From: Escherichia coli
GTDB taxonomy: Bacteria > Pseudomonadota > Gammaproteobacteria > Enterobacterales > Enterobacteriaceae
NCBI RefSeq assembly: GCF_003334765.1
Contig: NZ_QOWT01000139.1
DNA: 333 nucleotides
Direction: 5' to 3' (one strand)
The notes under the pieces were generated by a model that saw only the letters and a program-made list of their open reading frames with translations, did no database searches and was not told where the DNA came from. The first letter of the stretch is position 1; each line of letters starts with the position of its first letter. Of this stretch, positions 1-333 are shown piece after piece. The position numbers and the translations under genes were made by a program.

Positions 1-192
1 CGTATTCACCAACAACATCCGACATCCCGTCTTTTTCCGTTCTGTACCGGTAAATACCGCTGGCACGGCAGTGCTGAGGCGTATACCGGTCGTGAAGTGC
101 AGGATATTCCCGGTGTGCTGGCTGTATTTGCAGAACGCCGTAAGGACAGTTTTGGCCCGTATGTCCGCCTGATGAGTGTCACCCTGAACTGA
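1..192 (+). CDS. yeeT: DUF987 family small protein (YeeT-like), 5'-truncated by the window edge; C-terminal 63 codons plus TGA stop
   Basis: Frame 1 is open from position 1 to the TGA at 190-192 and translates to RIHQQHPTSRLFPFCTGKYRWHGSAEAYTGREVQDIPGVLAVFAERRKDSFGPYVRLMSVTLN*. This matches my recollection of the C-terminal 63 residues of the 73-aa E. coli YeeT, so the start would lie about 30 nt upstream of the window. Identification is from memory, not a search. Confidence 0.85.
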   Translation, partial: RIHQQHPTSRLFPFCTGKYRWHGSAEAYTGREVQDIPGVLAVFAERRKDSFGPYVRLMSVTLN

Positions 193-200
193 GTCAGGGC

Positions 201-217
201 ATTCTGATGAGCAGAAT
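201..217 (+). repeat. Short inverted repeat ATTCTG-N5-CAGAAT in the yeeT-cbeA spacer; potential 6-bp stem / 5-nt loop in the mRNA or a small dyad site
   Basis: Directly visible: 201-206 ATTCTG and 212-217 CAGAAT are exact reverse complements separated by ATGAG. The stem does not extend (200 C vs 218 T) and no T-run follows, so it is not a canonical intrinsic terminator. The repeat is certain; any function is speculative. Confidence 0.3.
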
Positions 218-255
218 TATCGCCACTACCGGACCATTCTTAACCGATTTTCTGT

Positions 256-260
256 GAGGA
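256..260 (+). promoter_or_regulatory. Shine-Dalgarno sequence (GAGGA) for the cbeA GTG start
   Basis: GAGGA at 256-260 is complementary to the 16S rRNA 3' end; a 7-nt spacer (TTTTATC, 261-267) separates it from GTG 268. Confidence 0.65.
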
Positions 261-267
261 TTTTATC

Positions 268-333
268 GTGTCAGACACACTCCCCGGGACAACACTTCCC
301 GACGACAATCACGACCGCCCCTGGTGGGGGCTG
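268..333 (+). CDS. cbeA: Type IV toxin-antitoxin antitoxin CbeA (YeeU family), N-terminal 22 codons only; 3'-truncated by the window edge
   Basis: GTG at 268-270 is the first plausible start after the in-frame stop at 241-243 and sits 7 nt downstream of a GAGGA. Translation is (M)SDTLPGTTLPDDNHDRPWWGL, open to the window end. This matches the N-terminus of YeeU/CbeA as I recall it, including the N-terminal extension that the shorter paralogs YfjZ and YafW lack. The position immediately downstream of a yeeT-like gene fits the known yeeT-cbeA order. Confidence 0.85.
   Translation, partial: MSDTLPGTTLPDDNHDRPWWGL

Follow-up and report, generated by a model that had tools for sequence, protein, structure and literature searches.

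The yeeT Gene and the Start of cbeA

The stretch of DNA analysed here, which as a whole is called the window (333 nucleotides), holds the 3' part of one gene, an intergenic spacer and the 5' end of a second gene on the same strand. Frame +1, read from base 1, has no stop codon before the TGA at 190–192 and encodes the 63 residues RIHQQHPTSRLFPFCTGKYRWHGSAEAYTGREVQDIPGVLAVFAERRKDSFGPYVRLMSVTLN*. These are codons 11–73, with the stop, of a yeeT-family gene (1–192, plus strand) whose first 30 bases lie upstream of the window, as given by the translation and by identity to RefSeq: the residues are 11–73 of WP_000692323.1, a 73-amino-acid "DUF987 domain-containing protein" (FDAARGOS_1261, locus L001). 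The second gene is cbeA (yeeU), coding for a type IV antitoxin, of which the window contains the 5' end (268–333, plus strand), encoding VSDTLPGTTLPDDNHDRPWWGL; this assignment comes from the translation and the RefSeq annotation, in which cbeA occupies 12268–12642 of L001 with its GTG start at window position 268. The window is matched at 100% identity by 14 complete E. coli chromosomes, and the layout yeeS-yeeT-cbeA-cbtA of E. coli K-12 is the same.

When the full YeeT protein is compared with Pfam, its residues 1–65 align with the entire model of PF06174 (positions 1–65 of 65; hmmscan, E 2.2e-39, 133.7 bits), and it also matches phrog_14887, a family with no known function, with an E value of 2.7e-38. 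These values place the DUF987 assignment far beyond chance and, together with the identity to WP_000692323.1, bear out the first-pass annotation, which had read positions 1–192 as a 63-residue fragment of the DUF987 protein YeeT. YeeT is a complete stand-alone DUF987 domain of 73 amino acids, and its C-terminal 63 residues are those encoded in the window. A YeeT-type DUF987 gene followed by cbeA is already known and annotated, and nothing in the 333 bases is new.

Other readings of the same bases were considered and set aside. A minus-strand open reading frame of 58 amino acids (6–182), contained within yeeT, was judged spurious in view of the Pfam match and the purifying selection on the plus-strand frame. 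Databases also hold proteins in which DUF987 appears to be fused to another domain (P0121–P0130 and A0A376U1S2). The yeeT frame is open for about 69 codons 5' of its ATG, overlapping the 3' end of the radC-like gene (L001 11764–11970), and this open stretch accounts for the chimeric reading frames, in which deletion junctions join pieces of DUF932, ArdB, Ag43 or RadC to an intact DUF987. Being deletion junctions or singletons, these "Rosetta-stone" fusions were rejected as functional.

The Spacer between yeeT and cbeA

The spacer (193–267) carries the Shine-Dalgarno sequence of cbeA, GAGGA, at 256–260. Its length is 75 nt in the window and 18–23 nt in other lineages (the IncHI-type plasmids L007 and L008), and the nucleotide homology to distant yeeT paralogues stops exactly at base 192, the last base of the stop codon. 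Non-coding readings of the window were discarded: no terminator-like site was found in it, the Rfam matches of the spacer and window lie far below the gathering scores, and the predicted RNA fold of the spacer is no better than that of shuffled sequences (z-score +0.91), so that no structure is predicted.

The part of the spacer just 3' of the yeeT stop (193–240) is a hotspot of insertions and deletions among islands that are otherwise more than 90% identical. About 40 nt of spacer are swapped for about 127 nt in L013 (2172–2300) and L014 (390–518), and L017 (444–1086) has an insertion of about 630 nt. On the minus strand, two sigma-70-like promoter matches fall at window positions 216–274, against 0.3 expected from shuffles: CTGACA-16-GAAAAT, from 274 to 247, and TTAAGA-16-GATAAT, from 243 to 216. 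These putative promoters, which are matches to the consensus, would drive transcription antisense to yeeT.

Abundance, Conserved Residues and Predicted Fold

The yeeT gene is abundant in its species, with a match in 4809 of 5426 complete E. coli genomes (89%), a median of three copies and a maximum of 15. The dN/dS ratios among its paralogues lie between 0.04 and 0.31 (about 0.14), a range shared by ArdB, RadC, CbeA and CbtA, and they indicate that yeeT encodes a real protein under purifying selection. An exhaustive HMMER search of 1.84 billion cluster representatives recovered only 178 DUF987 clusters at E ≤ 1e-3, many of which are fragments; conservation was counted on 45 diverse, full-length members chosen as representatives at 50% identity.

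In the alignment of these 45 members the conserved positions are A9, G27-K28-Y29-x-W31, G33, Y38, G40, A51 and E55-R56-R57-x-D59-x-x-G62-P-Y64. The motif positions are each kept in 35–43 of the 45 members, with the exception of P63 (32 of 45), and YeeT has G27, K28, Y29 and W31 as well as E55, R56, R57, D59, G62, P63 and Y64. The family is basic throughout, with a median pI of 9.4 and 80% of its members above 8. The 63 residues in the window include seven Arg, two Lys, three His, eight aromatic residues and one Cys. The description of the fragment as rich in Arg, Lys, His and aromatic residues with a single Cys is therefore correct as a count, and fails only if the Cys is taken as a conserved feature: position 25 (window 43–45) is Cys in 23 of the 45 members, Asp in 18 and Ser in four. 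The idea of a conserved cysteine was rejected for this reason, and because the position alternates among the three residues, a catalytic or metal-binding role for C25 appears unlikely from the alignment.

Several features of the family deserve mention in their own right. The Cys/Asp exchange at position 25 is unusual. Position 69 (window 175–177) is Cys in 28 of the 45 members and Ser in the island clade. A metagenomic protein of 159 amino acids (P0144) contains two DUF987 domains in tandem on one polypeptide, a duplication which hints that the domain may act as a dimer.

The structure prediction and fold comparison that had been proposed for YeeT yielded a very confident AlphaFold model (pLDDT 97) of a compact β1-α1-β2-β3-β4 fold, and searches of the PDB, AFDB50 and BFVD with it returned no significant relative outside DUF987 itself. 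The predicted fold of YeeT is an orphan, with no detectable relatives. Neither NCBIfam nor PADLOC gave a match to YeeT, and the 2024 survey of the y-ome still lists yeeT, ykfH and ypjJ as uncharacterised (PMC11551758), in agreement with the earlier statement that DUF987 proteins have no assigned function.

DUF987 in Enterobacterial Islands and Plasmids

Gene neighbourhoods were sampled through look-ups in IMG/VR and in plasmid, phage and metagenome collections. The island loci surveyed were L001, the IncHI-type plasmids L007 and L008, the Pluralibacter locus L021 and 12 IMG/VR loci obtained with YeeT as query; queries with distant members found the island gene order in 30 of 31 loci, and a scan of GTDB genomes contributed one island-type locus. 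Wherever the contig is long enough, the order is strict: an antirestriction gene (ArdB/KlcA-type), a RadC-like JAB gene, DUF987, CbeA and CbtA, often flanked by DUF932 and a GTPase upstream and by DUF5983, DUF957 and DUF4942 downstream. Whenever the contig of an island-type locus continues beyond DUF987, the next gene 3' of it is CbeA, on the same strand. In the CP4-57 paralogue set of E. coli, the genes yfjX-yfjY-ypjJ-yfjZ-ypjF have been treated as a single operon, lfgABCDE. MqsA binds the promoter of this operon, which lies 5' of yfjX, and oxidative stress induces it; the ypjJ gene has not been characterised (PMC10846083).

The divergence of these genes runs in parallel. Across 22 distinct islands, the pairwise identity of DUF987 correlates with that of CbeA (r 0.90) and CbtA (r 0.875) and less with that of RadC (r 0.58), the correlation between CbeA and CbtA being 0.94. 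In 16 of 231 pairs RadC is at least 95% identical while DUF987 is less than 80% identical, a discordance that never occurs for CbeA. These correlations and the absence of CbeA-type discordance imply that, within the island clade, DUF987 has been inherited as a block with CbeA and CbtA, from which it parts solely through clean loss. The co-divergence is real; it may reflect physical linkage only, yet it would also be expected from a functional tie.

The RadC-like gene is the outlier of the 22 island loci (L001, L007, L008, L012 ... L061). It is more conserved, with a mean identity of 85%, and it is discordant with ArdB, DUF987, CbeA and CbtA (r about 0.55–0.65 versus 0.74–0.94 among the others), which suggests recombination or gene conversion centred on it. 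At the head of the L001 island, a YeeP-like GTPase (5596–6468) gave weak PADLOC matches to LeoBC and LeoA (E 4.6e-08 and 5e-04), and the other eight island proteins tested had no match to a defence model. A copy on the IncF plasmid CP088843.1 (L064) was rejected as an example of a plasmid leading region: the segment comes from the chromosome, being a piece of CP4-44 that includes sbmC and yeeA and was captured beside ISEcp1-blaCTX-M-14. In the GenBank record of this plasmid (14296–15127) the antitoxin and toxin genes are both labelled "cbtA / toxin CbtA", an annotation error, since the first gene is the cbeA homologue.

DUF987 and the Toxin-Antitoxin Pair Apart from Each Other

Outside the enterobacterial islands the family is found in other company. 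A tblastn search with YeeT of 50,697 phage records (E ≤ 1e-3) returned only Klebsiella Drulisvirus and one E. coli fragment. The homologues, 46–48% identical, are carried by 69 genomes of lytic Klebsiella Drulisvirus (Autographiviridae). Where a record begins with the left end of the genome, the gene is found 2.4–3.7 kb from that end, upstream of the primase/helicase, in a group of small genes without known function that includes a DinI-like one. DUF987 occurs in 69 Klebsiella phage records, as against about 220–232 with the conserved neighbouring gene. That only about 30% of the records sharing this neighbour carry DUF987 marks it as an accessory early gene in Drulisvirus. In phage fHe-Kpn01 the homologue is g08, which was undetected in virions and, when screened in E. 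coli, was not among the toxic genes; g10, two genes further on, encodes one of the three proteins that were toxic (PMC7291057). Directly 5' of the DUF987 homologue stands a small gene annotated as DinI-superfamily or DNA-damage-inducible, both in this phage (L031 3033–3542, g07–g08) and in L005 (2122–2638).

Solitary DUF987 genes are also carried by Vibrio plasmids with conjugation genes, and in phage-like metagenome contigs DUF987 stands beside genes for Prim-Pol, dCMP deaminase, dUTPase, HNH and phosphoesterase proteins. Unfiltered profile HMMs for CbeA, CbtA, RadC and ArdB found none of the four in any of 12 solitary loci (all E > 0.7), several of which are on short contigs of 0.5–1.8 kb. 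Only six of the 45 full-length representatives are island-type, so most of the sequence diversity of DUF987 lies outside the clade linked to cbeA. One distant and otherwise solitary member, on a 1.8-kb metagenome contig (L022), has a DUF4942 fragment (1241–1393) about 1 kb downstream; DUF4942 also ends enterobacterial islands, and there may be some linkage beyond the island clade.

The toxin-antitoxin pair, for its part, occurs without DUF987. RadC directly abuts a gene of the YeeU-family antitoxin, followed by CbtA, in an Enterobacter plasmid (L027, 3460–4354) and in the E. coli plasmid pMTY18781-2 (L029, 3525–4333), and the DUF987 family HMM found no match in either of them even at E ≤ 10. 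Of 5426 complete E. coli genomes, 220 have a single copy of the RadC-YeeU junction of the second type, with both genes annotated as intact. Homologues of CbeA were found on 27 Aeromonas plasmids, one of them neighbouring an antirestriction gene that is next to traM/traI; DUF987 was found on no Aeromonas plasmid. Taken together, neither DUF987 nor CbeA/CbtA needs the other in order to persist, and their linkage is specific to one clade and dispensable.

YeeT and the Toxin-Antitoxin Module

The first-pass annotation had described DUF987 as syntenic with cbeA in each paralogous island and had regarded this as consistent with YeeT having a role, regulatory or accessory, within the toxin-antitoxin module, naming frequent occurrence of DUF987 away from cbeA/cbtA as the finding that would speak against such a role. 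The synteny holds in enterobacterial islands and plasmids and does not extend to the family, in which 39 of 45 representatives are not island-type and 12 loci are solitary; at this level DUF987 is indeed frequently away from the pair. The co-occurrence across genomes that it had proposed to examine is visible as the close correlation within the 22 islands, but not as an obligatory link (12 solitary loci, L027 to L029 and the 220 genomes). The role itself is not supported, given the modules that lack DUF987 and the DUF987 loci that lack the module.

The proposal deserves to be weighed in its fullest form, in which YeeT is a third component of the CbeA/CbtA type IV module and regulates the antitoxin or the toxin at the level of expression, stability or activity. 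It draws on the position of DUF987, which in all the enterobacterial island and plasmid loci examined that have the gene lies directly 5' of cbeA in the same orientation; on the correlation of DUF987 with CbeA and CbtA, much closer than that with RadC; and on recombination breakpoints that fall between RadC and DUF987 and not between DUF987 and CbeA. Moreover, the operon is not autoregulated by either CbeA or CbtA, which leaves a regulator missing (PMC5371832). Set against this are the intact RadC-CbeA-CbtA sets without DUF987 in L027, L029 and the genomes that share the junction, the 27 Aeromonas plasmids with CbeA homologues and no DUF987, and the representatives and solitary loci in which DUF987 stands away from CbeA and CbtA. 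In addition, published constructs of five genes that include ykfH or ypjJ (yafX-ykfG-ykfH-yafW-ykfI and yfjX-yfjY-ypjJ-yfjZ-ypjF) gave no better neutralisation of the toxin than did the antitoxin by itself, their toxicity being equal to that of constructs with toxin and antitoxin (PMC5371832). An AlphaFold2 model of DUF987-(G4S)6-CbeA built on 21 paired rows reached a mean pLDDT of 58 and a pTM of 0.41 and showed no confident assembly, a result of little weight since the CbeA half was itself poorly modelled. On balance, we consider a third component of the module unlikely; YeeT is more likely an independent accessory protein of mobile elements than part of the toxin-antitoxin module.

A Possible Role in the Establishment of Mobile Elements

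The explanation that we favour, as possible though somewhat short of probable, is that mobile elements carry DUF987 as an autonomous factor which acts early or in establishment, binds a target in the host and may have an anti-defence effect. According to this proposal, YeeT would be an accessory cassette of mobile genetic elements, small, basic and single-domain, which would be expressed together with entry or early genes, in the early region of lytic podophages and in the ArdB/KlcA – RadC-like JAB – DUF987 – CbeA – CbtA operon of the enterobacterial islands and large plasmids. The protein would bind a host macromolecule stoichiometrically and in this way help the incoming element to establish itself. 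Its most plausible effect would be to block a host defence or a stress response, and the CbeA/CbtA pair would not be served by it. From the size of the protein (73 amino acids) and the lack of a conserved Cys/His cluster, we infer that YeeT acts by binding rather than by catalysis.

The establishment model is the most economical because it accommodates the accessory early gene of the phages, the ArdB/KlcA and RadC neighbours in the islands and the precedents of early effectors and leading regions. As for these precedents, polyvalent proteins that act as early effectors of conjugative elements include RadC and CbtA/YeeV domains (PMC5512222), and an enrichment of anti-defence and toxin-antitoxin genes is seen in the leading regions of plasmids, where many of the families lack characterisation and some also occur in phages (PMC11541004). 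The early, first-entering position is found in the Drulisvirus phages, and it extends to the islands by analogy, through the adjacency to ArdB/KlcA and RadC; the island operon might be likened to a leading region, the part of an element that enters first. Accessory presence is seen both in the phages (about 30% of the Klebsiella records) and in the islands, one lineage of which has lost the gene. The absence of g08 from virions and its lack of toxicity would fit a host target that is non-essential, non-toxicity in a cloning screen being weak evidence. Three points fit the model less well. Known anti-defence proteins have no sequence or fold similarity to DUF987, the gene diverges in step with CbeA/CbtA in the islands nearly as closely as those two do with each other, and a function limited to entry less easily explains the constraint on the gene, because the E. 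coli copies sit in cryptic, largely immobile islands.

A broader and more doubtful version of the proposal is that DUF987 founds a new orphan-fold family of host-directed establishment proteins, acting against defence or stress responses and common to lytic Klebsiella phages, conjugative plasmids and the CP4-type islands of about 89% of E. coli genomes, and that it neighbours CbeA/CbtA as part of a shared "entry toolkit" operon rather than through a toxin-antitoxin function.

Other Activities Considered for YeeT

The conserved basic surface that would suit a host target equally allows YeeT to be a small nucleic-acid-binding protein that coats, protects or regulates the element's own DNA or RNA, for example as a regulator of the transcription or translation of early genes. 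We regard this activity as improbable.

It is also conceivable that YeeT is a partner, substrate or inhibitor of the RadC-like JAB metalloprotease (YeeS, YfjY/LfgB), whose gene is directly 5' of DUF987 in all the DUF987 island loci. In L021 the two reading frames overlap at the stop and start (RadC ends at 3552 and the DUF987 frame starts at 3549), and elsewhere the gap is only 9–13 nt. YfjY/LfgB reportedly degrades MqsA as a protease of poor solubility (PMC10846083), and for such a protein a small chaperone or regulator can be imagined. However, RadC occurs without DUF987 in L027 and L029, and DUF987 without RadC in all the loci from phages, Vibrio and metagenomes. Among the neighbours, RadC shows the lowest congruence, as seen in its low correlation and in the 16 discordant pairs, and the RadC-DUF987 fusions in databases are deletion junctions. 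A functional partnership with RadC is accordingly very unlikely.

Finally, that YeeT is a prophage antirepressor of the GfoA/FsoA/Rem type, which would inactivate a short lambdoid repressor, is highly improbable, for although it is a small protein encoded on mobile elements and weak BLASTP matches of YeeT, YkfH and YpjJ to FsoA of Fels-1 were obtained with relaxed parameters (PMC10448788), the three proteins had no effect on dicBp-lacZ, which Rem derepressed 165-fold (PMC10448788), the phage search with YeeT matched no Salmonella prophage, DUF987 occurs also in phages that are strictly lytic, where there is no repressor for it to counteract, and homology was rejected in a comparison with Rem (hhalign probability of 0.7% for the DUF987 profile; no BLASTP alignment).

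Implications of the Establishment Proposal

Having weighed these alternatives, we return to an establishment factor of mobile elements as the favoured explanation. What is added here to the known annotation is the clade-specific nature of the toxin-antitoxin linkage, a fold without known relatives and the accessory early homologues in phages. YeeT, YkfH and YpjJ belong to the y-ome genes of K-12, in a family that is multi-copy in most E. coli strains, and the DUF987 homologues of Klebsiella phages of the therapeutic type provide a tractable experimental handle. The question can now be put more sharply: does DUF987 help incoming phage, plasmid or island DNA past a host barrier? A positive answer would make DUF987 a new anti-defence family relevant to the spread of plasmids and to host range in phage therapy; with a negative one, DUF987 would be an ordinary conserved hypothetical protein.

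Comparison with Known Systems

With respect to the Pfam family DUF987, represented in E. coli K-12 by YeeT, YkfH and YpjJ, the window protein is a plain member that shows no difference: it is 96–100% identical to annotated YeeT-type proteins, and its gene likewise lies between a RadC-like gene and a YeeU-family antitoxin gene. The family itself has no assigned function.

The third components of other toxin-antitoxin systems, such as the SecB-like chaperone of TAC or the regulator PaaR of paaR-paaA-parE, resemble YeeT in being small and encoded directly 5' of the antitoxin in the same operon, and within the islands YeeT likewise co-diverges with the toxin-antitoxin pair. In contrast to these components, DUF987 occurs without the pair and the pair without DUF987; DUF987 adds no neutralisation in the published constructs and has no homology with chaperones or with HTH or RHH regulators. 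The antirepressors of the Gifsy, Fels and Qin prophages (GfoA, FsoA and Rem) are of similar size and are, like YeeT, borne on prophages or islands. They differ from it in that YeeT is inactive on DicA (PMC10448788), DUF987 is present in lytic phages and its profile has no significant similarity to Rem.

The comparison with proteins of anti-defence and establishment (ArdB/KlcA, Ocr, PsiB and DinI-like proteins) is the one that bears on the proposal favoured here. Although DUF987 has no sequence or fold similarity with any of them and is basic, whereas the classical antirestriction proteins that mimic DNA are acidic, it is also small, single-domain, borne on mobile elements and accessory or patchy in its distribution. 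Like them, it is early in lytic phages and common to phages and conjugative elements, and its gene has an ArdB/KlcA neighbour in the islands and a DinI-like one in Drulisvirus.
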